Virus record (IMG/VR): IMGVR_UViG_3300031949_000019 | Direction: 5' to 3' (one strand) | Source: a virus | DNA: 64,000 bases | In this document: positions 28,778 to 52,258 of the stretch, piece after piece | Position numbering within the stretch: the stretch's first letter is position 1 | How the letters are laid out: each line of letters opens with the position of its first letter | The notes under the pieces: generated by a model | What the model was told of the DNA's origin: nothing | The model's database searches: none | The model's input: only the letters and a program-made list of their open reading frames with translations | Position numbers and translations under genes: made by a program

Positions 28778-28990
28778 ATGAAGGAAGAAAAGAACCCTCC
28801 GTCAGACTTTAATGGAGCCAGTTACGCTCTGTGGCTGGAAACGCAGCAGACTGATGCGTTAGCCGAAAAGCGTGCTACTTCTCGCGGGGTAGACCGGATG
28901 GTCTCTACATCGAACGCCGTTCTATTCCTGATTTTCATACTGGGAGTTGGCGGGCTGCTCTGTTATATCGGCTACCGCCTTCTGTTCTAA
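28778..28990 (+). CDS. small single-TM membrane protein, antisense moron
   Basis: 70 aa with C-terminal hydrophobic helix AVLFLIFILGVGGLLCYIGY; opposite to the structural operon. Confidence 0.6.
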   Translation: MKEEKNPPSDFNGASYALWLETQQTDALAEKRATSRGVDRMVSTSNAVLFLIFILGVGGLLCYIGYRLLF

Positions 28991-31900
28991 AACGGACTCG
29001 CAAAAGCTCCCTGTCGTCGTGGGCGACCAAATGCAGCCTTGAAGCCAGTTGGTTTATCTCTGGCAATGCCCAGTTTGTCGCGGAGCTTATTCATCTCGTC
29101 TTTCGTAATTACCCCTGATTGCTTAGAAAGCTCGTCTTGTGCGTCGTCCTCTGTCATTGTGTCCAGCTTTTGCTGGTTATCCTTGATCCATTGCTTCATG
29201 CGTGGCCCCGTCTTGGAGAGCAAATCGTAGTATTCTTCCGGTGTAATTCGTCGTCCCTTCGAAACCTCGCCAGTCTTGCTTGGCACTGGCACGCGTAAAC
29301 CTTTACTGATTACGAATCGCCACGATGGGTCACTCGTCAGTACGTCAAAAAATCTCTGCCGCTGAAGTCTTACTGGTTCACCAAAGGCATTGAGAGTTGG
29401 CTTTAGGTAAATAGACGCGAAAGGCGTGCTGCGCACCAAGTCCTCCATCAGGGTGTTGGACTGGTAACTCTTATTGTCAAACAGTCGGTAGATATCTCTG
29501 GCGATGTTTGGGGTTGTTGCCGCTGCGGCGGTCGAACTGAGCGTCTGCTTTACGGCCGTGATAGATTTAGCGGGTTCATTTGAGAGAGCGTCAAACAGTC
29601 GGCTCAATCCAGAAAGGAAACTCTGACTGAATACTGTGCTGCCGAGTCTAGCGATCGCGTAAGCTCCGCGCGTGGCTGCGTCCTTTTGCTCTAACTCGTG
29701 ATACCGCTGAGAATCAGTCATATTCCCCACCACGGAAAGTCCCAAACTGAGCGGCGTGTAAACATAGGAAATGTATTTATCGCCAATTTGAATGCTGTAA
29801 GGGCGCCAGCCCGCACCTTGTAACTGTCGGCGTTTTTCTCGATCACTTGGCCCGTTGCCATGAATTTGAATTAGCCCTGCAGCTTGCAGCGTCCCAAGGC
29901 CCACTAAGCCGACCGTTCCCATTGTCGCTCTGGTAATCATCAGCCGACGCGCTTCAGGCGTAAGAACCTCACCATGACTGTAGCCCATGAAAGCTCGTTT
30001 ATAGCCGTAGGGCGTATAATTCAACCCTCTGTTCGTTACGTTCGCGACGATTCGGGTAAATGGGACAAATAATTTCAAGGCTTTGTATTTCTGAGCCCAG
30101 TTGCCGATAACCTCTGAGGCGTAACCGAGCGCGCCATGCGGCGTATGGTTGTAGGTGGCTTCCCCCGCAAACTCTGCAGCGTCACTCGAAATATCTTTGT
30201 CGCGAACCATCTCGACAAGTTCCGCGGCCCGCACTTTAGCCTCGGCGCCTGTGAACCCTTCCCTCTCTGCTTGCTTGAGAAAGTCAGCGCGACGGTCAAG
30301 CGCAAGTATGTCCCGAACGCGAGCGTCCAGCTCGTCGCCACGTAGCCCCTCGTTGCGCGCCATACGATCTGCCAGCAGAGACGCGCGCGCCTCCTTGGCT
30401 GAACGGAAGAACACAGCGTCACTGGCTGCCAGCAATCGCGTAACGTACTTATAAGCGTTTAGCGGAGTGCCGATGGGAGACTCGGCTATCAGTTTTGTGG
30501 CGCGGCCTACTCGGGTGTCCGTCCTGATCGGCACTCCGCCTTTCTTCCCAAACTTGGAGATGTCCATAAGGCGCGGGACTTCCAGCCATTTTCCGTCCGT
30601 AACCATGCGGCCTTGTGTCAGTGCGAGTAGTGCGTCCAACTTGCCATCGGAGAAGCCACGCAGCATTCCTCCGTAAATCTTCGCAGCGGCGCGCGGGTTA
30701 TTCATCGCCAGCCCGTTGACTTCTGAGATCACATTAAACGCCGTGTCTATCGTGTTGACGATGTGAGTGTTGTACCCGGAAAGAATGTTGCCGTAGTAAA
30801 TACCTATCGGAAGATCCTCGGCCCCAAACCCTTTCTGTTGAGCGATGAACTTATTCAACTCCAGAACGGCTTTGTCCTTTGGCATGCCTTCGGGAGCCTG
30901 CTCGATCAAGTCGGCCAGTTCAGTGATTCGCCGTGCAATCTCCTTGCTGTAGCCCGGAAGACCCAACCTATCCCCCACAATGTCATAGAACAATGTGTCC
31001 GTGAGCTTTCCGTCCTTGGCTGCCTCGATCAGCTTTTGCCACGATGGCCGGGCTTTTCTAACGGTTGCGTTCTTCTTGAATAGTTTGTTCAGTTCTGCCA
31101 AGCGTTCTTCGTCAGTCAAGCCTTTCTTGTTCAACGTGTCTACCGCCTCACGCACCTCCGGCTCGGCAAACTTCATGTGGCGCTGACGTGCTTTATCTAC
31201 AGCCCGCTTATAAGAGAGCAGCTTTCCTTGGGGGGTTAGTTTTGCCCACATTGCGAATGACTGAACTCCTTGACCCAACCTCGTTCCATAGTCCATTTGC
31301 CACTCAGCGAGATCGGTAGCCTGATCCAGTACGAATTCAGCTTCCTTTGGATTGCTCGTTTTCAGGTTGCGATAGGTTTGGTTGAGTCGCTGGATGACGA
31401 TCTGCCCCATTGTGGAGCGCACGTGGGGGGCAAGTGCGTTGTTCTCGTCCTTGATGATTTTTATGCTGTCACCGATTCCGCGAGATTCAACTAACTTCGA
31501 GGCTTCTTCGGCAGTGACTTTATTAGGGATTGGCTCATAGTATTTTGCTGTCCCGATAGAGTCACGCAGTTCTTGAACCATGCGCTCATCTTCAACAAAC
31601 CGAGTACCAAACTTTCGCTCTTTTACTTCAGGAAAGGGTTCTTTAGCGGATGCTGCACCAGGGCCAAACTTACCAGGACGTTCTTCAGTAAAAGGCGCGG
31701 GCATGTCCCCCACACCCGCACCTTTGCTTGATTCAGGAACAGTTATTTGAGTTTTCGCCAGTTCTACTTTAGTAGTAGTGGCACGTTGTTCTCCTTTCTG
31801 TGCGCGAGATTCTTCGATCAATTTTGTCCAATAGGGGATCGAGCCGCGCCTGTTAATGGTAAATCCTTCAGCGCGCGCCATATCGTGTGCTTCTTTTAAT

Positions 31901-34900
31901 GTACGTGGTAGCGGTTCTAGTGCTTTCGACTTAGTGGATAAAGGTAATTCAGAACTATACACACCAGTAGCACGACTAGAAGTGTCTGCATTAGGCGCTC
32001 CTTTCAAATCAGGATAGTCTGCTAATACTTCAGGGGGCACAGGTTTCCCTTCGCGCAGTGCTTGTTCGACAGATTGTCGATGGTTGCGGAACCGAGCTTC
32101 AGAGGTGCCGCTTCCCCACTTGCCTCGAATGTAAAGCGAGACTGGAACTTGCCAATCTTCTTTGCTGCGCTGGGCAGCCATCGCTTTCACTTCCGACGGA
32201 TATTCTGTACGTCCTCGCTTAAGAGCCGCTTGAAATGTAGTCGGTTCTTTAGCGGTACTCTCCGAAACTGATTCAGAAACTTTTACTTCAGGAGCGGCGG
32301 TTTTCCGTTCGGTGGCGGCGGAGTCTCGTGGTAGAATGCGCGGTGTGCCCGACTTGAGATCAGGCACACCCGACACATTGCTTTCAACCAAAGGAGCAGC
32401 AACATGCCGTTGATTGATTGTATCTGCCTGAACTGCGGGATTCAATTTAGCCGCTACCCCACCAACATCGCCAAAAGCGGAAGAACCTTTTGCAGCAGAC
32501 CCTGCCACTGCGCGTACGAGCGTGTCGGCTACGTCAATGGGAATGGATATCGTATGGTCAGGATTGACGGTCACGCCGTCAGGGAGCACCGACTTATCAT
32601 GGAGCGACACGTCGGACGCAGACTTGACGCGCATGAGATTGTCCACCACATCGACGGGGACAGACTCAACAACAGCGTCTCGAATCTTCGGATCACGGAT
32701 TTCGCGGAGCACCAGCGCCATCACCGCCCGTTGACTTGGGACATCGAGGCCGCGAAGGCCATGCTCGCGGAAGGGCTGACTCTCCGTCAAGTCGGCAAGC
32801 GCCTGAGGCTTGATATCTCCCACATCCGAACCGCGTTCAAAAGCAGGGGGCTGCCCCTGTGATGGACTAAATACTTTTGGTTCTCCTTTAGGGGAAGGCT
32901 TGACCGTGAGAGACGGTTCGCTTTCTAAAACCGGCGCTCCAAATGAAACACCCTTTTGCGTTTGTTCGCGTTTCCAGTCTCTAATAGCATTGATGTCCTC
33001 AATTAACTGCCTGCCTCGTGTAATCTGTTCGGGCGAAGCCTCTCCCACAACCGCCGCACGTCGAATGTTCATTAAATCTTTCCGCATCGAGCCTTCAAGC
33101 ATGTTAACTGCTTTAGTTTGAGGCGTTGTCGGCTCGTAGCCAAGATGAGAAAGCGATTTCGCTAGCGACTCGTCAAGGTTTTGTTGTCGAGCAAGTTCAG
33201 CTAACCCTTCAGCGGAGATTTCAATACCTGCACGTTGGGGGAGAAGCGCCGCAAGATTTTCTCCTACAGAAGGCTCAACAGGTTGGGAAGGCGCGATTTG
33301 TTTTGGTTGTGGCCTTGTTGGCGTGGTTTCCTTCTTAATAAAGCGATCAAGCATGAATGCGGCGTCTTCAGGGTCGCTAAACCGTTGACCCGCTGCTTTT
33401 ATCGCCTCGCGTGAGATTGCCTGCGTGTCCCAACCGTTCTCATGTGCGATTCTTGCGGCTTCTCGAAGTGTCCCATACGCAACTTGCTGATCGTGGTTCA
33501 TCTTTACCGGATCAGTTTCGTTGCCAACTCGACTCACTGCCCAGCGCATACTTTCAGCAAGAGATTGCGGACTGGAATCATCAAGGTTTCCAAGGGACTG
33601 CCGATAGCTGCGGAGTTCATCAACCTGTGGGCCGGTTTCACCAATACCGTAGAGACGGTTGCGATCCGTTTCCGATAATGCGGCCTCGATCTTCTCGACT
33701 TCCTTGTAGGCAGCATCCGCTTTCTCCGTGTCCCATCCGTTTGCCGTGCGCTGAAGTCGTGCATAACGCTTCGCTAGTTCAGGGCCAAGAATGCTCGCCT
33801 CAAGGTTGTTGTCCTCGGCCTTCTTGCGTTGAAACTCTTCTTCGATCTGGGGACGAGTCATCTCCCACGGTTTTACAACTTCTGCTTCTCGGGCAGGTTC
33901 AACAGAAGTCTGTGCAGCATTAACCTGTTCGGGTTGGGAAGGCGTACTTACTTTCGCTTGTACGCCTTCTACTGGTATGGTTTCAGCAGGTGGAATAGCA
34001 GCTTCCAGCGGAGGTGTTGGTTCCGCTTTGCGGGCTTCAACGGCAGGAACTTCTGGCTTGATTGGGAGTAGTTGAGCGTTTCCCCTTCCTTGTAAATCAG
34101 CTTTCTTCACGTAGTGAATAGCTTCGGGATTATTTACTTCTGCAACTCGTAGTTTTCCAGCACGCGCACCTTCTTGAGACGCAGTTACTTCAACGTCACC
34201 GAAGCGGAGGGAATGAAATCGCTGCGGTGCTGTCCTTTCCGCAATAACATCAGCAGCCAATTCTGGCCCACCTGTTTCGATTTTGGCTTCAGGGTATTGT
34301 TCGGCCATCACCTCAGCTTGCTTACCAACATTCTCAGGTGAAACAGCCGATGATTGAATTTCATTGCCTTGTGCGTCTCGCGCCACAACAGCCTCAGTTG
34401 TTGCTGCCGACTTGGGTTGAACGTGGCCTAATAGTTCAGTGGTTGGCGTATTTCTTATCGTTTCTCGGCTGATACGATTAGGATCGTAATAGACAACTCC
34501 ATCGGGAGTTTTCTCGGTACGATAGCCACGCGGAATAGACGGACGCGGAGTATTATTAGGAATCAACGAATAACCACGTACCTGTAATTGTGCGAAAATT
34601 GTTTCAGGACGTTCGGGTACACTGTCTCTCCCTCTTATTGTTTCTGGGTTAAACTTTGGTGTCGGTCGCCACTTAGCTCCACTGGTCAACGCAAATCCCA
34701 AAGTAGTTAAGGCATTTGGTATCGCTTGTTCTAGCGGCGTTCCCCTCCCTACGTCTACAGCGACTTGCGGAGCAAGGAAAGCGACTATCTGCCGTTTCAT
34801 GCTCGGATTCACCCCAGCAATACCGCCCATTGCCGCTCCCATTGCTGTTGACACAGCAATATCTGTGGGGCTCATCGGTTCGCCCGTCTTGGCCGCTTTA

Positions 34901-35991
34901 ATCGCTTCTCTCGCCGTCTCAACTCCACCAAAGGTCAAGGCGGTACGAACAATGTGTGCTCCCCTAGTAGCTCTCGCTAAAGCAGGAATCTTGCTTAATA
35001 GTTTTCCTGCCCCAATGTAAGGTGCGACACCAGCTATTGTTTCCCCTGCGCCCATCGCAAGATTTTGCTGCGCTTCAGCATTAGGATTAACAAGACGTTC
35101 TTCAGGCGTAATCTCCCGTTCCGCGTCCACGGCCCCCAAAGTTAGCCCGCGTATCGCTCCACGTATCGGGTCGGTCTTAATTCCCATTGGAGCATCAAGA
35201 CTTGTCAAACCGGGAACATAAGGCTTAATCGCCTCTGTTGCTCGCTCAATAATTCCCGGACGGCGAGCTTGCATCGCAGGTCCACGATCACGTGGTATTC
35301 CCGGTTGGCCCCGTTCTGTCTCGGTAAACCCACCAGGGGCTTCAATAGTCTGCGGAGAAACGCCTTTTACTCCTGCTCTTGCTCTTGCAAAAGGATTAAC
35401 TCGTTTGGTAGGCGCTGTCGGTGCGGCGGTATCCAGCGAATCTAACAATGCATCGTAAGGGTCTACTTGTGTGGCCTTGGAGGTTTCGCCAATACTATCC
35501 AACAACTGGTCGTACTTGTCACCCTTTGGCGCAATCTTCTGTACATATCCTCTCGTTTCAGGAATACGTTGGGCAGACCGTCTCGCTTGCTCTGAAGTTT
35601 TGTTGTGACCTGAATTATAAGCCGCTAACGCTAACGTTGCATCGCCATGCTTGGCGATCAAGTCCTTCATCATGCGCGCTTGAGCATCCGCAGCTAACCG
35701 AGGGTTATAACGGTCATCGCGGCCCTTCCCCACGTAGAGTCCATACTGTCTCGCGGTATTCGGCATAAACTGACTGAGACCAGCCGCACCTTTTGACGAC
35801 TTTCCCGGCCCAAATACATAATGAGGACTAAAGTTTACTGATTCTTGTTTGGCTTGGTTATAGAGAAGATCGGGATCAACGCCATGCTTTTTGCCGACCT
35901 CCTGATAGAGCGCACGATAGTCCATCGGAGGCTTCGCTTTTTTGGCTGGACTTCCGAGATTATCTATCAGGTCATCGTAAGCATCTGGCAT
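28987..35991 (-). CDS. giant internal virion/ejection protein: N-terminal lytic transglycosylase (SLT), C-terminal LPD38-like domain
   Basis: GVDPDLLYNQAKQES...GAAGLSQFMPNTARQYG...ALAAYNSG (SLT); ALREGKPVPPEVLADYPDL motif; GWRPYSIQIGDKYISYVYTPL (LPD38-like). Confidence 0.88.
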   Translation of the reverse strand: MPDAYDDLIDNLGSPAKKAKPPMDYRALYQEVGKKHGVDPDLLYNQAKQESVNFSPHYVFGPGKSSKGAAGLSQFMPNTARQYGLYVGKGRDDRYNPRLAADAQARMMKDLIAKHGDATLALAAYNSGHNKTSEQARRSAQRIPETRGYVQKIAPKGDKYDQLLDSIGETSKATQVDPYDALLDSLDTAAPTAPTKRVNPFARARAGVKGVSPQTIEAPGGFTETERGQPGIPRDRGPAMQARRPGIIERATEAIKPYVPGLTSLDAPMGIKTDPIRGAIRGLTLGAVDAEREITPEERLVNPNAEAQQNLAMGAGETIAGVAPYIGAGKLLSKIPALARATRGAHIVRTALTFGGVETAREAIKAAKTGEPMSPTDIAVSTAMGAAMGGIAGVNPSMKRQIVAFLAPQVAVDVGRGTPLEQAIPNALTTLGFALTSGAKWRPTPKFNPETIRGRDSVPERPETIFAQLQVRGYSLIPNNTPRPSIPRGYRTEKTPDGVVYYDPNRISRETIRNTPTTELLGHVQPKSAATTEAVVARDAQGNEIQSSAVSPENVGKQAEVMAEQYPEAKIETGGPELAADVIAERTAPQRFHSLRFGDVEVTASQEGARAGKLRVAEVNNPEAIHYVKKADLQGRGNAQLLPIKPEVPAVEARKAEPTPPLEAAIPPAETIPVEGVQAKVSTPSQPEQVNAAQTSVEPAREAEVVKPWEMTRPQIEEEFQRKKAEDNNLEASILGPELAKRYARLQRTANGWDTEKADAAYKEVEKIEAALSETDRNRLYGIGETGPQVDELRSYRQSLGNLDDSSPQSLAESMRWAVSRVGNETDPVKMNHDQQVAYGTLREAARIAHENGWDTQAISREAIKAAGQRFSDPEDAAFMLDRFIKKETTPTRPQPKQIAPSQPVEPSVGENLAALLPQRAGIEISAEGLAELARQQNLDESLAKSLSHLGYEPTTPQTKAVNMLEGSMRKDLMNIRRAAVVGEASPEQITRGRQLIEDINAIRDWKREQTQKGVSFGAPVLESEPSLTVKPSPKGEPKVFSPSQGQPPAFERGSDVGDIKPQALADLTESQPFREHGLRGLDVPSQRAVMALVLREIRDPKIRDAVVESVPVDVVDNLMRVKSASDVSLHDKSVLPDGVTVNPDHTISIPIDVADTLVRAVAGSAAKGSSAFGDVGGVAAKLNPAVQADTINQRHVAAPLVESNVSGVPDLKSGTPRILPRDSAATERKTAAPEVKVSESVSESTAKEPTTFQAALKRGRTEYPSEVKAMAAQRSKEDWQVPVSLYIRGKWGSGTSEARFRNHRQSVEQALREGKPVPPEVLADYPDLKGAPNADTSSRATGVYSSELPLSTKSKALEPLPRTLKEAHDMARAEGFTINRRGSIPYWTKLIEESRAQKGEQRATTTKVELAKTQITVPESSKGAGVGDMPAPFTEERPGKFGPGAASAKEPFPEVKERKFGTRFVEDERMVQELRDSIGTAKYYEPIPNKVTAEEASKLVESRGIGDSIKIIKDENNALAPHVRSTMGQIVIQRLNQTYRNLKTSNPKEAEFVLDQATDLAEWQMDYGTRLGQGVQSFAMWAKLTPQGKLLSYKRAVDKARQRHMKFAEPEVREAVDTLNKKGLTDEERLAELNKLFKKNATVRKARPSWQKLIEAAKDGKLTDTLFYDIVGDRLGLPGYSKEIARRITELADLIEQAPEGMPKDKAVLELNKFIAQQKGFGAEDLPIGIYYGNILSGYNTHIVNTIDTAFNVISEVNGLAMNNPRAAAKIYGGMLRGFSDGKLDALLALTQGRMVTDGKWLEVPRLMDISKFGKKGGVPIRTDTRVGRATKLIAESPIGTPLNAYKYVTRLLAASDAVFFRSAKEARASLLADRMARNEGLRGDELDARVRDILALDRRADFLKQAEREGFTGAEAKVRAAELVEMVRDKDISSDAAEFAGEATYNHTPHGALGYASEVIGNWAQKYKALKLFVPFTRIVANVTNRGLNYTPYGYKRAFMGYSHGEVLTPEARRLMITRATMGTVGLVGLGTLQAAGLIQIHGNGPSDREKRRQLQGAGWRPYSIQIGDKYISYVYTPLSLGLSVVGNMTDSQRYHELEQKDAATRGAYAIARLGSTVFSQSFLSGLSRLFDALSNEPAKSITAVKQTLSSTAAAATTPNIARDIYRLFDNKSYQSNTLMEDLVRSTPFASIYLKPTLNAFGEPVRLQRQRFFDVLTSDPSWRFVISKGLRVPVPSKTGEVSKGRRITPEEYYDLLSKTGPRMKQWIKDNQQKLDTMTEDDAQDELSKQSGVITKDEMNKLRDKLGIARDKPTGFKAAFGRPRRQGAFASPF
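32329..32396 (+). promoter_or_regulatory. extended -10 promoter, hairpin and RBS of the nested HNH gene
   Basis: TG-g-TAGAAT (32329-32337), GGTGTGCC/GGCACACC stem (32342-32370), AAGGAG (32391-32396), ATG 32404. Confidence 0.7.
32404..32862 (+). CDS. HNH homing endonuclease nested antisense inside the 2334-aa gene
   Basis: CxxC...FCSRPC zinc module, GYRMV...REHRLIMERHVGRRL...EIVHHIDGDRLNNSVSNL (HNH_3), C-terminal HTH; strong RBS. Confidence 0.9.
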   Translation: MPLIDCICLNCGIQFSRYPTNIAKSGRTFCSRPCHCAYERVGYVNGNGYRMVRIDGHAVREHRLIMERHVGRRLDAHEIVHHIDGDRLNNSVSNLRITDFAEHQRHHRPLTWDIEAAKAMLAEGLTLRQVGKRLRLDISHIRTAFKSRGLPL

Positions 35992-41257: not shown

Positions 41258-43249
41258 TTAGCGTGGGAGTGGCTGGCCGTAGTCATCAAGCGGTGGTGGC
41301 TTCTTCAAATTCAGGGTTCTCTTGGCAAGCCATGTGGCTATCTCGCCTGTCATTGCGGCTACATCTGGAGGAATGTTTCGCTGCGCTAATTCTTGGCGCG
41401 TATAGCCAGACGGTATCAAGGCGTTGAGCTTTTGCTCTTGAGTTAAGGGCATGTCTGTAGGGCCGAACGTGCCGCCCGCAAGCAACATGCGAGTGCTGTC
41501 GTTCTCATCATCATCGCGCTTTATTGGCTCATCTACTGTCAGACCGCCTTCTGTGTGTTTCACTGGACGACGTCGCCAGTTGAACGCCCCGTCACGATGT
41601 CGCCTCAAGCCATAGTCATCTATTGGAGAAAAGAATTGATCGTCGGCAACAACATCAAACCATGCTGGACAGCCAATCTTCCACAGTCCAGTATTCGTGT
41701 TTTTTTCGTCACGATGGAAAGGATGTGGTTTGTTGTGATCGCAGGTTAGAAGGTGTCTCCATTGGGCGAGTCCTGCGGTTTTTGCTGAATCGCATGGTTG
41801 GAAGTGCCATGCGTGCTTGGAATTCAAAACCATCCTCTCACCCAGCTTTTCGTGGCTCATAAAGTGGCGTTCTATCATTTCCCCTGGCCAGATTGCCGCT
41901 CTTATCGCAATTGACTGCTCGTCAATTCCTACTGCCTGAAAGCTACGACCACGATAGCGAAACACCGAACCTGATAGTTCAGCAACTTGCGGCGCACGCG
42001 CGAGAAACGTCCACGCGCTTCGATGTCCAGTGGAATAACCAATATCTAACCCAACATCACACGGCCAATCAGAGGGAATGCGTCTCATGCCGTACTTTGC
42101 GTCGAACTGTGACCATGAAATAACGTTCGCGCGAGTAACGCGATCATCATATTCAGGTAAAACTCGTTCTTCTTCGGTCGCGGTGAGGTCATGCATGTAC
42201 TCCGCTTGGAACGCTTCAAGACCCGAGCGATCAAGAAATACCTGGCACTTCTTGATATCCATGTCTGCCCATGTTGGGGTACCCTTTTTGATGATATGCC
42301 GAGGGCCGTGCTCGGTCTGCTCAAACTCGATTTGAAGGTCTTCCTTGAAGGCTGGCACAGGGCCACCCCCGATAACACGTCTTACGGCCAGAACCGAGCT
42401 GATTCGAGTAATAATGCGGTTCATCACTGAGTTTGAGTGAATCGGGTTCTGATCGAAGATGATTCGCGTCGAAGCATTGCCCATTGGGAGGATCGAACGC
42501 GCAATCATCATCTCCTTGCCTTCAACTATTACAATCGAGTCTCCAATTTCATCTACATCGGAAAAGACAATAAGCGTCGGGCGCATGTCGAGCACCTTGC
42601 CGCCGCGCAAGGCGACGTTCAGGCCAGCAGGTCGCACCGCCCATCCGCCACCCCGAGGATCGCCAGTCATCAGGAACTCTCTGCCCCATCCAAACTTATT
42701 CCCATGCGCACCGAGCTTTGGTTTGCTCATCCACGGGTAAACTTTGCCGATTTGCTCCGACTCAATACGATCTCTAATGGAAATGACGTGTTCTTCAGCT
42801 TGCTCCTGCTTGCCTGATACCCAGAGGACGTAGCCCCGACGCACCAAACATCCTTCTGCTATCGCGCTCCACTCGCTATGGCTCGATTTTCCCGTGTCCC
42901 GTGCCCACGGTAGCAGCGCAACCAGATCATCAGAATTCAACTCTTTCCCTTCGCGTAGTCGCATGGCTATAGGCCAATACCAAGCCCAAAACTCGTGGTG
43001 AAAGAAAGAGAACGAACCTGTGAAGGTATGCGGGCCAAACTTCCGTAGCCACCATTCGTAGCCTTTGGCTTCATCCAGCATCCCTTTGTTAGCTTGGGCG
43101 TACTGATTGAGCTTTTTGTAGCCTTCGGGATTGTTCTTTTCCAGCCAGTCGAGACGTTTCTGAATTTCTTCAGGCGAACGCGAGAAAAACTCACGAGCTA
43201 TTTCATGGAATGTTGGGGTTGGGGTGTCAGACAATAGGAGCCTCCACAC
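41258..43249 (-). CDS. terL: terminase large subunit
   Basis: PWARDTGKS (Walker A-like), LIVFSDVDE (Walker B-like), GLDIGY...SAW (RNase H/RuvC-like nuclease), DDENDSTR. Confidence 0.85.
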   Translation of the reverse strand: MWRLLLSDTPTPTFHEIAREFFSRSPEEIQKRLDWLEKNNPEGYKKLNQYAQANKGMLDEAKGYEWWLRKFGPHTFTGSFSFFHHEFWAWYWPIAMRLREGKELNSDDLVALLPWARDTGKSSHSEWSAIAEGCLVRRGYVLWVSGKQEQAEEHVISIRDRIESEQIGKVYPWMSKPKLGAHGNKFGWGREFLMTGDPRGGGWAVRPAGLNVALRGGKVLDMRPTLIVFSDVDEIGDSIVIVEGKEMMIARSILPMGNASTRIIFDQNPIHSNSVMNRIITRISSVLAVRRVIGGGPVPAFKEDLQIEFEQTEHGPRHIIKKGTPTWADMDIKKCQVFLDRSGLEAFQAEYMHDLTATEEERVLPEYDDRVTRANVISWSQFDAKYGMRRIPSDWPCDVGLDIGYSTGHRSAWTFLARAPQVAELSGSVFRYRGRSFQAVGIDEQSIAIRAAIWPGEMIERHFMSHEKLGERMVLNSKHAWHFQPCDSAKTAGLAQWRHLLTCDHNKPHPFHRDEKNTNTGLWKIGCPAWFDVVADDQFFSPIDDYGLRRHRDGAFNWRRRPVKHTEGGLTVDEPIKRDDDENDSTRMLLAGGTFGPTDMPLTQEQKLNALIPSGYTRQELAQRNIPPDVAAMTGEIATWLAKRTLNLKKPPPLDDYGQPLPR

Positions 43250-47896: not shown

Positions 47897-47911
47897 TTCG
47901 ACCTCCAAGTT

Positions 47912-47988
47912 TGCTATAATGCAAAGCGAGCGAGAGAAAAGTTCAAGGCTTCTCTCCCGCTCTAAACACCGAATCCCAGATTAAGGAG
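47912..47988 (+). promoter_or_regulatory. extended -10 promoter, hairpin and RBS of HNH gene
   Basis: TG-c-TATAAT (47912-47920), GAGCGAGAGAA/TTCTCTCCCGCTC stem around AAGTTCAAGGC, AAGGAG 47983-47988. Confidence 0.75.
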
Positions 47989-47995
47989 ATATTCG

Positions 47996-48682
47996 ATGCC
48001 TGAGCTGAATCTTACCATCCTGTCAAAACTTCGTCGCCCAACTTCTAAACACGTCAAACGAGTTAGCCTTGCGAGGCAAAAGTTTCATCGTCTTACTGTG
48101 TTCGGTCTTATGGGCTATCACGTTAAGACCCTCCATCCGTACTGGCTCTGCCGATGCAGATGCGGCAACTGGAGCATCGTGCTCGGCCAGAAACTAAAGA
48201 ACGGTAAAACCAAGTCTTGCGGCTGCTACAAGGATGAAAACACAGGCAACAGAAACCGCACTCATGGTATGTCAAAGACCTTGGCGTATAGCCGATGGTC
48301 GGACATGCACAGTCGCTGCTACAACGCTAAAGTAAAACATTTCCCCGATTACGGTGGTCGCGGAATCACTATCGAAACCCGATGGCACAGTTTTGAAAAT
48401 TTCTATGCCGACATGAACGAGCCACCTAATCCGTCCTACGAAATAGAGCGCAGAAACAACGATGGAAACTACGGCCCTGCTAACTGTTATTGGGCTACCA
48501 AAAAGCAGCAGGCTCGAAACAAGCGCGGTACTCGATGGATTACCATTAACGGCATTACAAAATGCATGGCCGAATGGTTAGATTCCTCCAGCGTCAAGCA
48601 ACCCGTCGCTTGGAAGCGCCTAGATCGTGGCTGGACGCCGGAGGAAGCCCTTGGTTTCAAAGAACGTGTAAACCGTTCGTGA
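47996..48682 (+). CDS. free-standing HNH-type homing endonuclease, antisense in capsid operon
   Basis: WLCRCRCG...KSCGC...HGMS...RC...YGGRGI...W..FENF..DM...IERRNNDGNY.P.NC.WAT..QQARN family signature. Confidence 0.92.
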   Translation: MPELNLTILSKLRRPTSKHVKRVSLARQKFHRLTVFGLMGYHVKTLHPYWLCRCRCGNWSIVLGQKLKNGKTKSCGCYKDENTGNRNRTHGMSKTLAYSRWSDMHSRCYNAKVKHFPDYGGRGITIETRWHSFENFYADMNEPPNPSYEIERRNNDGNYGPANCYWATKKQQARNKRGTRWITINGITKCMAEWLDSSSVKQPVAWKRLDRGWTPEEALGFKERVNRS

Positions 48683-51637: not shown

Positions 51638-51719
51638 TGTTAGAATGAGGCGAGTTAAAGCCCCTCCAGACTCTTGAGAAGCCTAGAGGGGCAACACAAC
51701 ATGAAGCCGTATTAAGGAG
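51638..51719 (+). promoter_or_regulatory. extended -10 promoter, hairpin and RBS of HNH gene
   Basis: TG-t-TAGAAT (51638-51646), GCCCCTC/GAGGGGC stem (51660-51692) with CTTGAGA in loop, AAGGAG 51714-51719. Confidence 0.72.
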
Positions 51720-51727
51720 ATCATGTC

Positions 51728-52258
51728 ATGTCTAACCCCTATCTTATCGTCTGTCCAATCTGCGAGACAACTTTTGAAAGTTTGCATTCCTTTCAAAAAT
51801 ATTGCAGTTCAATTTGCAGACATAAATCAATTAACCGTCGATACAAGGTACGGAATGGCATAACACGCGCTACATCATCTCGGAAGAAAAATCGTGCGAA
51901 GGGGTTGTGCCACTGTGGAAATGCTGTTTTAGCGGGGCGCGCTCGATGTGTGAAGTGTGCTGAACAAACCAAAACAATGCTCCGCATTTTGAGACAAAGC
52001 GTAATCAACGGCTACGGGAGACTGTGTGAGTGCTGCGGAGAAGATCAGTGTGAATTTTTAACCATTGATCACGTTAACAACGACGGAAAAGACGAACGAA
52101 AGAAATCGAACTTTGCCGCCGCGAGCCTGCATAGACAAATCAAAGCCGAGAACTTTCCTCCTCGCTATCGACTCCTTTGTTACAACTGCAATATTGGGCG
52201 ATACAAAAACGGCGGCGTCTGCCCTCACGAAGAAGCCCGATTGGCATTGGTGGCGTAG
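51728..52258 (+). CDS. free-standing HNH endonuclease, antisense
   Basis: CPIC...YCSSIC; CECCGE...FLTIDHVNNDG...RLLCYNCN. Confidence 0.88.
   Translation: MSNPYLIVCPICETTFESLHSFQKYCSSICRHKSINRRYKVRNGITRATSSRKKNRAKGLCHCGNAVLAGRARCVKCAEQTKTMLRILRQSVINGYGRLCECCGEDQCEFLTIDHVNNDGKDERKKSNFAAASLHRQIKAENFPPRYRLLCYNCNIGRYKNGGVCPHEEARLALVA

Follow-up and report, generated by a model that had tools for sequence, protein, structure and literature searches.

The window analysed here, a 64,000-nucleotide stretch of viral DNA (IMG/VR virus record IMGVR_UViG_3300031949_000019), very probably carries a selfish, I-HmuI-like HNH_3 element at about 32308-32865 that lies antisense and codon-aligned within a linker of a giant virion or injected protein, and that does without splicing. 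The arrangement recurs in hundreds of uncultured phages: we located 29 antisense HNH genes, in 28 giant phage genes that are unrelated to one another, and not one has an antisense stop, a pattern that is not due to chance. The antisense HNH layout is a widespread, almost undescribed lifestyle of a selfish gene within another gene.

According to our proposal, the lack of TTA, CTA and TCA codons in the element would allow a ribosome to read the giant gene through it. Such read-through would add about 185 largely inert residues to the giant protein, and neither RNA splicing nor protein splicing would be required. The HNH protein would be expressed from its own extended -10 box, 5' hairpin and Shine-Dalgarno sequence within the host coding sequence. 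The enzyme may cut element-free alleles and spread via homing or recombination repair, the location in a linker may make the insert tolerable to the giant protein, and embedding may guard the element against imprecise deletion.

The nested gene, its host and its signals

Table 1. Coordinates in the window of the nested gene, its putative signals and its host
Feature	Position	Strand	Description
Giant host ORF	28987..35991	-	2334 aa; late (terminase-side) operon
Giant host protein, architecture			N-terminal SLT lytic transglycosylase; polar linker-rich middle; C-terminal part like PHROG 'internal virion protein'
SLT transglycosylase domain of giant protein	35569..35904	-	aa 30-141; Pfam SLT, E = 2.3e-18
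Putative mobile segment	32308..32865 (approximate borders)	.	about 185 codons, giant aa about 1043-1228; HNH gene, promoter and leader; delimited as the only part common to other giant genes and by GC/AT-skew anomaly
Extended -10-like box TGGTAGAAT	32329..32337	+	putative promoter element; reads ILP in giant frame
5'-UTR hairpin	32342..32370	+	8-11 bp stem; at predicted 5' end of HNH mRNA
Shine-Dalgarno AAAGGAG	32390..32396	+	7 nt 5' of ATG
HNH endonuclease gene	32404..32862	+	152 aa, ATG start, wholly within giant ORF; Cys4 zinc module, HNH_3 catalytic core, C-terminal three-helix HTH-like domain

The ORF list confirms what the sequence-only reading had described, namely an HNH ORF of 152 aa wholly inside an opposite-strand ORF of ~7 kb (Table 1). 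Further details of that reading were also borne out: an intact HNH motif (VHHIDGDRLNNSVSNL, found in this ORF) with a zinc module and an HTH; an extended -10 box, a hairpin and AAGGAG, all in the sequence; a codon register shared by the two frames; no TTA, CTA or TCA among about 20 Leu/Ser codons; and a segment richer in GC.

The HNH gene is antisense to about aa 1044-1196 of the giant protein. Since (35991-32404) mod 3 = 2, the two frames have common codon boundaries, and therefore an antisense stop can arise solely from the sense codons TTA, CTA or TCA. None of these occurs among the 14 Leu and 7 Ser codons of the HNH gene; 4.56 antisense stops are expected from the giant gene's own codon usage (P(0) = 0.0055). 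The composition of the segment is anomalous, with a GC content of 0.60 over 32500-32799 versus about 0.50-0.54 in the flanks, and with a switch in the sign of AT skew that is confined to 32350-32950. Similarity to the giant protein of one relative (L169), whose HNH is 52% identical, is confined to aa 1065-1228 of P0002, and other giants match only across aa about 1046-1227. No flanking direct repeats or target duplication were found around the element.

The giant gene lies downstream of the gene for the terminase large subunit (41258-43249). SLT is the sole Pfam family that the giant protein matches; it has long linkers and none of the signature polyvalent Pfam domains, and a PHROG search matched phrog_6651 at aa 1971-2157 (E = 1.5e-20). 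We regard the host as a virion or polyvalent-type protein; that it is essential is an assumption of the sequence-only reading.

The window's HNH protein matches Pfam HNH_3 (E = 3.2e-11), as do all HNH sequences in our set (33/33), and it matches 14 PHROG HNH families. Across the 33 relatives, the four cysteines (C8, C11, C30, C34) and the residues H62, H81, H82, N90, N94 and H103 are unvarying. The Pfam families HTH_23, HTH_7 and HTH_38 are matched in 14-18 of the 33; the tail of the window's HNH scores below the HTH Pfam threshold, and in the AF2 model it forms three helices, with matches to HTH domains of the resolvase and LuxR types. This model has a mean pLDDT of 92.9, with strands at 78-82 and 95-99 followed by a helix at 100-107, and its top fold match in the PDB is I-HmuI (1U3E, probability 0.98); a sequence search of the PDB gave weak matches only. 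The element can be assigned as an HNH_3, I-HmuI-like HNH endonuclease gene, and its patchy distribution suggests homing activity.

Signals that could drive expression of the nested gene were compared among the 29 nested relatives. TGnTAnnnT occurs within 70 nt upstream in 16 of them, versus 4.3% in background (p = 5e-15), and an SD-like motif occurs in 19, versus 6.4% (p = 2e-16). The hairpin is an inverted repeat (32342-32352 / 32360-32370) with a fold of -23 kcal/mol (z = -3.0), and it is kept in the L169 relative via two compensatory pair changes. Two free-standing nuclease genes of the same phage are preceded by a promoter-hairpin-SD cassette of identical type, with the same -10 box. A promoter scan requiring both hexamers called no promoter on the + strand, and a search for the window's sequence in RNA runs gave no match.

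Recurrence and selection on the two frames

Genome and metagenome scans were run with an alignment of the four closest sequences (A3), the A1 alignment being too diverse. Among the 23 full-length family members recovered by six-frame searches that ignored gene calls, 19 are nested antisense, in uninterrupted antisense frames of 931-3397 aa. In these 19 genes the aligned antisense frame has 0 stops, while the other two antisense frames have 2-24. The expected number of stops per nested gene ranges from 0.7 to 13.7, and none was seen; the joint probability of zero stops is about 1e-52 for the first 17 genes, and about 1e-30 for the ten found without gene calls. Across relatives, the nested overlaps span 150-240 codons.

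The layout was also found by starting from the host frame, which led to six further giant proteins, each with an intact antisense HNH (6/6). A profile of the antisense peptide matches 3202 cluster representatives at E <= 1e-3, 495 at E <= 1e-10 and 120 at E <= 1e-30; the 495 are almost without exception giant proteins, and the top 150 matches are nearly all 1000-5000 aa in length. Inspected as DNA, the matches ranked 1 and 150 have intact antisense HNHs, with two copies in the first. A database search for HNH ORFs antisense to open frames, an idea of the sequence-only reading, was in this way productive (29 cases, 495 clusters at E <= 1e-10). Its idea of a strategy independent of splicing is supported by the 28 unrelated giant genes with this layout and zero stops, and by the lack of any intron or intein signal.

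The hosts of relatives bear ART-PolyVal, RadC, InPase, MuF_C, PBECR and LPD domains and are located among late genes. Pfam searches of antisense or same-strand host frames around five distant HNH genes (L064, L073, L132, L177, L119) found nothing. Among deposited phage genomes we found no full-length relative of the antisense type, and query coverage of at least 80% was reached only by methylase inserts of the ShiLan type (see below). When 30500-34800 was compared as DNA with 50,697 phage records, no match was obtained, and no relatives of the giant protein were found in IMG/VR.

The sequence-only reading had suggested dN/dS in both frames, and this analysis singled out the HNH frame as the selected one. 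Omega is about 0.19 for HNH and about 0.78 for the antisense frame, with only 17 changes in the SS class; observed/expected ratios in the closest pairs are 3.70 for SS, 2.90 for SN, 0.69 for NS and 0.28 for NN. At the first, second and third positions of HNH codons, nucleotide identity is 0.456, 0.571 and 0.378, so that variability peaks at HNH position 3, corresponding to host position 1. The amino-acid sequences have an identity of 0.354 when read in the HNH frame and of 0.249 when read in the antisense frame. At the level of sequence comparison, these codon-position patterns and an omega of about 0.2 show the HNH frame to be under purifying selection.

The host-frame peptide is nearly neutral, save for the avoidance of stops and for a single Pro codon that is fixed. 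This codon faces the Gly codon of the HHxxG motif, which is GGG (antisense Pro) in 25/25 nested genes having Gly there, versus 32/174 free-standing controls (p = 2.5e-16); in 6/7 checked family members that are not antisense-nested, it is GGA, GGT or GGC. The fixed Gly codon and the avoidance of stops support a host frame that is presumably translated. The mean AF2 pLDDT is 58.5 for the antisense frame versus 92.9 for the HNH frame, the antisense model having a helical core of moderate confidence, and the language-model recognition scores are 1361 and 3351. A Pfam search of 17 antisense peptides gave no family at cut-off, and no look-alike of the antisense peptide was found in the Atlas. The sequence-only reading had also proposed a route to de novo protein sequence; a peptide that is near-neutral (omega about 0.8), with one clearly constrained site, favours this idea only weakly.

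Mobility and alternative explanations

One slot in the L013 host family is empty in P0190, filled by the HNH segment in P0178 and P0165, and occupied by other cassettes elsewhere; alignment and an HMM search indicate that P0171 and P0209 have a different cassette there, not the HNH segment. Relative to the empty allele, the filled one has a 3n insertion of about 176 codons. The sequence-only reading had anticipated an empty allele and an insertion of such length among homologues, and this proved right for the L013 family but not for the window's own giant gene, for which no element-free allele was found among 5.8 billion proteins. The segment is carried by 14/120 homologues of the host family; on a tree of the flanks, at least 7 changes are required to explain where it is present, and non-carriers are found next to carriers at a distance of 0.03-0.05. 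The flanks of the slot show recombination breakpoints. More generally, the host flanks of nested copies are mostly unrelated, the positions vary, and some genes have several copies.

The window's giant gene is itself a mosaic: the match to its best flank relatives (P0006-P0011) ends at aa about 900-1009, and relatives on the C side (P0013, P0016, P0017) share just a short repeated motif. It is important to consider that ordinary recombination, by shuffling the modules of polyvalent genes, could relocate the segment with no nuclease activity involved. Moreover, none of the HNH copies found exceeds 52% identity to that of the window, and therefore no recent transfer is documented. The short repeated motif, which is GKPVPPEVLADYP-like, was considered as a target site and rejected; it adjoins the HNH in L001 and L005 and is missing beside most other copies.

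The selfish-element explanation must be weighed against the idea that the HNH is a domesticated module, kept because it is useful to the phage (for example, in excluding competing phages, degrading host DNA or promoting exchange of polyvalent cassettes), with the host-frame peptide as a functional spacer. The two genes would then be a co-adapted overlapping pair, and the HNH would not be a parasite. The HNH is intact in 29/29 nested copies and under strong purifying selection, signs of some selection on the host-frame peptide come from the Pro codon that is fixed and from bias in the codons for Glu, Ile and His, and the antisense peptide has its moderately confident helical core. The element also sits at a cassette-exchange slot with recombination breakpoints in the flanks. 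We nevertheless consider domestication unlikely, given the patchy occurrence among close host homologues (14/120 carriers, at least 7 changes), the empty allele in the L013 family, the varying positions and the several copies in some genes. The host-frame peptide, nearly neutral (omega about 0.8), without a Pfam family at cut-off and with a low language-model recognition score, also speaks against a functional spacer.

Homing endonuclease genes are commonly borne by introns or inteins, and group I introns may escape covariance models, so it could be imagined that an intron, an intein-like reaction or a translational bypass that went unrecognised removes the segment, and that the open frame is incidental. 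This is very unlikely. Removal would leave stops unselected, yet 29/29 nested copies have none where 0.7-13.7 are expected, and the Gly codon shows selection on the host frame. Rfam at E <= 1 over 31000-34500 gave 0 matches, and no Hint or intein domain was found in the host frame (giant protein and 17 antisense peptides). Also, because the element consists of the HNH ORF, a leader of about 95 nt and little more, there is no space for a ribozyme. It is extremely improbable that the HNH-like ORF is a silent relic or by-product and that giant proteins have the minus-strand peptide as an ancestral domain, although chance leaves the codon-aligned antisense frame open more often than the others and gene callers annotate the giant ORF alone. 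The sequence-only reading had named a dead HNH with an ancestral minus-strand peptide as something that would overturn it; this view is already contradicted by comparative data, as catalytic and zinc ligands are unvarying in 33 sequences, omega contrasts at about 0.19 (HNH) versus about 0.78 (antisense), and variability is highest at HNH position 3. In addition, the start codons are accompanied by SD or leaderless -10 signals, the AF2 pLDDT values differ as given above, and free-standing and same-strand relatives of the HNH exist. Misassembly, about which the sequence-only reading had also cautioned, or the wrong fusion of two neighbouring genes into one ORF, is barely credible. The source is a soil metagenome contig, and low-depth variant contigs branch at 32881-32900 and 33259-33292; however, an independent Logan contig of 26.5 kb, from another assembler, covers 30500-33288 with zero differences, and the site is therefore not a misassembly. 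The same layout is also seen in many independent samples and assemblers.

Relation to known systems and significance

The closest precedent for the window's layout is the ShiLan domain, an HNH endonuclease described as 'hidden' inside the mycobacteriophage DNA methylase gp65 (Arsenault, Gosselin & Gogarten, Genes 2025, PMC11855218; earlier PMC9957025). In both cases, an HNH_3-type gene with zinc fingers lies inside a protein-coding gene whose frame is free of stops, there is no detectable intron or intein, the distribution is disjunct, and the in-frame insert is helix-rich and poorly predicted. The window's HNH is 30% identical over 95% of its length to an insert of the ShiLan type, and one relative (L020) has the ShiLan layout with an N6_N4 methylase as host. 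However, the ShiLan gene is on the same strand as gp65, in the third frame (both +), whereas the window's element is codon-aligned on the opposite strand. The hosts also differ (methylases versus giant virion or polyvalent proteins for the antisense elements), and the ShiLan authors found no RBS while the elements described here carry SD and -10 signals. In a tree of HNH sequences, two same-strand cases fall in the opposite half from all 29 antisense ones. The ShiLan paper never mentions antisense, reverse or complement (PMC11855218). We found no description of the antisense form of a read-through HNH in the literature, and the earlier belief that nothing comparable had been described holds for this form but must be tempered by the same-strand, out-of-frame ShiLan precedent.

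Other systems resemble the element in part. Free-standing phage HNH genes (I-HmuI family; T4 mobE-type) share the HNH_3 catalytic family and a modular DNA-binding tail, and two close relatives (L090 and L173) are themselves free-standing, but such genes lie between genes or split a gene in two, while the window's gene is within an uninterrupted ORF. Homing endonucleases borne by introns or inteins likewise reside in an important gene that is undamaged, and their imprecise loss would harm the host gene; in the window there is no ribozyme or Hint domain, and harmlessness would come from antisense-frame read-through, with the insert staying in the protein. Rickettsia palindromic elements, reportedly described by Ogata et al. 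in 2000 as inserted in frame in protein genes, are also selfish DNA that is tolerated in ORFs, keeps the frame open and is translated as an extra peptide, but they are short non-coding repeats, whereas the window's insert encodes a full enzyme on the other strand. A survey of polyvalent proteins, which are predicted to be cut into pieces, lists 131 domains and no antisense gene; HNH is mentioned once, and homing, overlapping genes and the opposite strand never are (Iyer et al. 2017, PMC5512222). The hosts of the relatives resemble these proteins in their polyvalent-type domains and late-gene setting, but there is no Pfam family that the antisense peptide matches.

Whether long overlapping genes in antisense orientation exist in bacteria and phages is disputed, since a single case is indistinguishable from an open frame that arose by chance. 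The comparative signal here is unusually clean, with 29 independent stop-free copies, opposite selection signatures, the elements' own expression signals and a census that runs to hundreds of protein clusters. With this finding, introns and inteins are joined by a third means by which a homing-type nuclease can occupy a gene harmlessly, and what was observed for ShiLan in 2025 is extended to the opposite strand and to a class of hosts that is far larger. Nested nuclease genes are systematically missed by gene callers, which favour the giant ORF. A pseudo-domain of 150-240 residues that is the shadow of an opposite-strand gene is present in hundreds of giant phage proteins, with implications for how domains are annotated and structures predicted. 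The elements also mark recombination slots in polyvalent effector proteins.

A bolder reading is possible, although we lean slightly against it. It posits a clade of HNH genes specialised in antisense, codon-aligned life within phage genes for giant injected proteins, with both strands translated over 150-240 codons in hundreds of lineages and both readings selected, the nuclease strongly and the host frame for the avoidance of stops and for at least one residue; the nuclease, at cassette slots, may drive the exchange of modules to which polyvalent proteins owe their mosaic nature. If this reading is true, prokaryotic viruses would have in this clade their largest family of long antisense overlapping genes with evolutionary support.

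The HNH gene within the giant reading frame

The sequence-only reading had claimed that a complete HNH gene lies antisense within an essential gene that stays in frame. Both ORFs were located, and the small ORF, which has the complete motif, is an HNH_3 nuclease (Pfam E = 3.2e-11; 14 PHROG HNH families match). As claimed, the two ORFs share codon boundaries ((35991-32404) mod 3 = 2), and the giant residues opposite the HNH are about 1044-1196. The upstream features that had been described, i.e., the TGGTAGAAT box, the stem-loop and AAAGGAG, were all found, and the segment is indeed GC-richer (up to 0.60). The AT skew flips its sign only over 32350-32950, as expected of a piece that codes on the opposite strand. 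The N-terminus of the giant protein is an SLT transglycosylase domain (Pfam), the C-terminal part is similar to a PHROG 'internal virion protein', and its gene forms one minus-strand operon with the large terminase gene.

Coordinates of the nested gene, its signals and related features
Feature	Position	Strand	Remark
Giant ORF, 2,334 aa	28987-35991	-	ORF listing
HNH ORF, 152 aa	32404-32862	+	entirely within giant ORF
TGGTAGAAT box	32329-32337	+	present in sequence
Stem-loop upstream of HNH	32342-32370	+	inverted repeat, fold
AAAGGAG	32390-32396	+	present in sequence
HHxxG motif	32644-32658	+	same column in 25 nested relatives
Free-standing nuclease gene 1	47996-48682 (with cassette 47911-48682)	+	PHROG HNH E = 8e-60
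Free-standing nuclease gene 2	51728-52258 (with cassette 51638-52258)	+	no family match
L013-family slot	between GQQFDQ and ARGSFNP		L013 gene 1843-8235 (-), homologues P0165-P0284

In the shared register, the only HNH codons that can give a stop in the host frame are TTA, CTA and TCA. The earlier statement that the HNH gene avoids them is correct: they account for none of its 14 Leu and 7 Ser codons, where 4.6 are expected from the giant gene's own codon usage (P(0) = 0.0055). For a single locus, this result is suggestive of more than chance, and the weight therefore rests on relatives.

Recurrence of the antisense arrangement

A search with the central part of the giant protein found six further giant proteins that resemble it in the antisense-HNH stretch only. 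The contigs of all six carry an intact opposite-strand HNH ORF (34-43% identical) that keeps this register and has a start codon of its own. Because this set was obtained via the open host frame, we ran a six-frame HNH search that ignored gene calls in IMG/VR, GTDB genomes and JGI metagenomes. This search, of the kind that the sequence-only reading had proposed for HNH ORFs antisense to open frames, found 23 full-length family members, and 19 of them are nested in an uninterrupted antisense frame (931-3397 aa, many ended by the contig edge). In these 19, the aligned frame has no stops and the remaining two antisense frames have 2-24. Per gene, 0.7-13.7 antisense stops are expected among the first 17 of the nested genes, and none is observed; the joint probability is ~1e-52, or ~1e-30 for the ten nested genes located independently of gene calls. 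The nested antisense HNH arrangement is real.

Among the other four members, L090 and L173 are ordinary free-standing HNH genes, contig L020 has its HNH within a DNA methylase, out of frame on the same strand, and contig L019 has its HNH between two distinct ORFs, InPase (222 aa) and RadC (380 aa). At L019:4715-7176, the HNH's antisense frame is fully open (234 aa) and begins directly after the InPase stop; this locus could reflect the recent splitting of a polyvalent gene at the borders of the element, or an error in the sequence. Four distant HNH_3 genes (L064, L073, L132, L177) lie inside opposite-strand open frames of 441-625 aa, and a fifth (L119) lies on the same strand inside a 610 aa frame, at +2. 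Pfam gave no matches on these five host frames, so they are candidate genes only.

For a census, a profile built from 17 antisense peptides was compared with 1.84 billion cluster representatives. At E <= 1e-3, 1e-10 and 1e-30, there were 3202, 495 and 120 matches, respectively. Almost all of the top 150 are 1000-5000 aa long and match in an interior stretch. Ranks 1 and 150 were examined as DNA, and both have intact antisense HNH genes; rank 1 has two different ones (L249:3337-3954 and L249:4501-4989, minus strand) within one 1296-aa ORF (L249:1501-5391). Several census proteins have 2-4 matched stretches, e.g., four in P0019. Full-length antisense-type relatives are absent from the deposited phage genomes searched, which is probably why the layout has been overlooked so far.

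The nested genes are accompanied by putative expression signals. An SD-like motif occurs at -18 to -5 in 19 of 29 (background 6.4%, p = 2e-16), and TGnTAnnnT occurs up to 70 nt upstream in 16 of 29 (background 4.3%, p = 5e-15). In most nested genes that lack an SD, the box is at -15 or -16, i.e., a leaderless layout; the window HNH's own box is at -75. The closest relative of the window's HNH, that of contig L169 (52% identical), keeps box, hairpin and SD, and its hairpin has two compensatory pair changes. The window's two free-standing nuclease genes occupy gaps in the minus-strand late operon, and both share the nested gene's cassette: TGnTAnAAT, a GC-rich hairpin and AAGGAG 7-8 nt before the ATG.

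Selection on the two frames

Nucleotide identity among 17 genes is 0.456 at the first HNH codon position, 0.571 at the second and 0.378 at the third; the most variable site is thus the HNH wobble base, which is the host codon's first base. At the amino-acid level, identity is 0.354 for the HNH frame and 0.249 for the host frame. For the four closest pairs, we scored single-base codon changes as synonymous (S) or nonsynonymous (N) in the HNH frame and then in the host frame, and obtained observed/expected ratios of 3.70 (SS), 2.90 (SN), 0.69 (NS) and 0.28 (NN). The dN/dS analysis of both frames, which had been proposed earlier, puts omega at ~0.19 for the HNH versus ~0.78 for the peptide of the host frame, with 17 changes in the SS class. 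The zinc and catalytic ligands are invariant in 33 sequences, and Pfam assigns all 33 to HNH_3; on 17 antisense peptides, Pfam finds no family at cut-off. AF2 gives a mean pLDDT of 92.9 for the HNH frame, whose best PDB match is I-HmuI, and 58.5 for the antisense peptide, whose helical core is moderately confident. On the Atlas language-model recognition score, the HNH reaches 3351 and the antisense peptide 1361, the latter being within the range of shuffled sequences.

The selection pattern contradicts a dead HNH, which is excluded. Misassembly is also excluded, as an independent 26.5-kb Logan contig covers 30500-33288 with zero differences. Removal of the segment by splicing is unlikely: Rfam has no matches around the element and Pfam finds no Hint domain in the host frame, the element is scarcely bigger than the HNH ORF, and removal would erase the observed selection against stops. 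Most of the probability goes to a selfish element, and the remainder to a nuclease that has been domesticated and is beneficial.

One codon bears on whether the host frame is read. All 25 nested genes with Gly in the HHxxG motif encode it by GGG, a host-frame Pro, versus 32 of 174 free-standing controls (p = 2.5e-16). Among seven relatives checked that are not antisense-nested, only L090 uses GGG; GGA, GGT or GGC is found in L019, L020, L173, L134, L189 and ShiLan, a same-strand HNH insert. The motif's Ile (ATC), Glu (GAG) and His (CAC) codons are biased too, and the predicted model of the antisense peptide places the Pro between two helices. We read the fixed GGG as probable selection on a translated host-frame peptide, but it may also have been fixed by a constraint on the DNA or RNA.

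Probable mobility and precedents

The host genes have little in common outside the segment, and hosts that share domains differ in its position. An alignment of homologues had been proposed earlier as a way to find an empty allele and an insertion. Protein searches found no element-free allele of the window's own giant gene, but an empty allele was located in the L013 host family, a well-populated family of LPD22-type polyvalent proteins. In its slot, whose bordering strings GQQFDQ and ARGSFNP are conserved, P0190 has two residues, P0178 and P0165 have an antisense HNH of about 176 codons, and P0240, P0171 and P0175 contain other, unrelated cassettes. Alleles with the HNH have SPRATFNP where others have ARGSFNP, a difference that arises because this host motif includes the antisense of the element's AGGAG. 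The segment is carried by 14 of 120 L013-family homologues, its presence needs at least 7 changes on the C-side flank tree, and the carriers' non-carrier neighbours on this tree are at distances of 0.03-0.05. A mobile element that occupies a recombination slot would be expected to show such patchiness. However, this pattern does not by itself show nuclease-driven movement.

The slot is just N-terminal of a zincin-like HESGH domain, and its unrelated modules include ART-like ones. Flank identity changes abruptly at the slot, e.g., from 59% on the N side to 95% on the C side in P0168, which suggests recombination breakpoints there. In the same soil sample as the window, low-depth contigs (8-9x versus 22-28x) branch at 32881-32900 and 33259-33292 and swap 358 and 639 bases for 148 and 165 others, so co-occurring strains differ in the linker beside the element. 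A short motif resembling RxxHxxSVxxALxxGKPVPPEVLADYPxL occurs in the window's giant protein at aa 1300-1333 (about 31993-32094) and 1003-1030; it recurs within and between giant proteins (P0003, P0004, P0013, P0016, P0017, L014 and L016), in many cases where modules meet.

The closest precedent found in the literature is the ShiLan domain, an HNH in mycobacteriophage methylase gp65 (Arsenault, Gosselin & Gogarten 2025, PMC11855218). There too, the host frame is open across the HNH without an intron or intein. However, ShiLan is encoded on the strand of its host gene, in the third frame, whereas the window's element is antisense; the ShiLan authors found no RBS, and their paper does not mention antisense arrangements. 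The two HNHs are distant relatives (30% identical), and the HNH tree puts the two same-strand cases in the opposite half from all 29 antisense ones, with moderate support (SH-aLRT 85). Such genes are also unmentioned in a survey of polyvalent proteins (Iyer et al. 2017, PMC5512222). L020, an IMG/VR contig, has the ShiLan-type layout: an HNH gene (L020:5947-6564, plus strand) within an N6_N4 DNA methylase gene (L020:5264-7414, plus strand) whose Pfam match is broken into two parts. In Cylindrospermopsis phage Cr-LKS3, an HNH match lies beneath an annotated DNA methylase.

The claim that the layout was undescribed therefore stands for the antisense form, for which no description was found, but must be qualified by the same-strand precedent. 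The interpretation in the sequence-only reading is supported, with essentiality of the host gene assumed and homing something that we infer. The antisense layout is a form of read-through HNH insertion element, a kind already known from ShiLan, and it provides a case of long antisense dual coding that is very widespread and has unusually good support.
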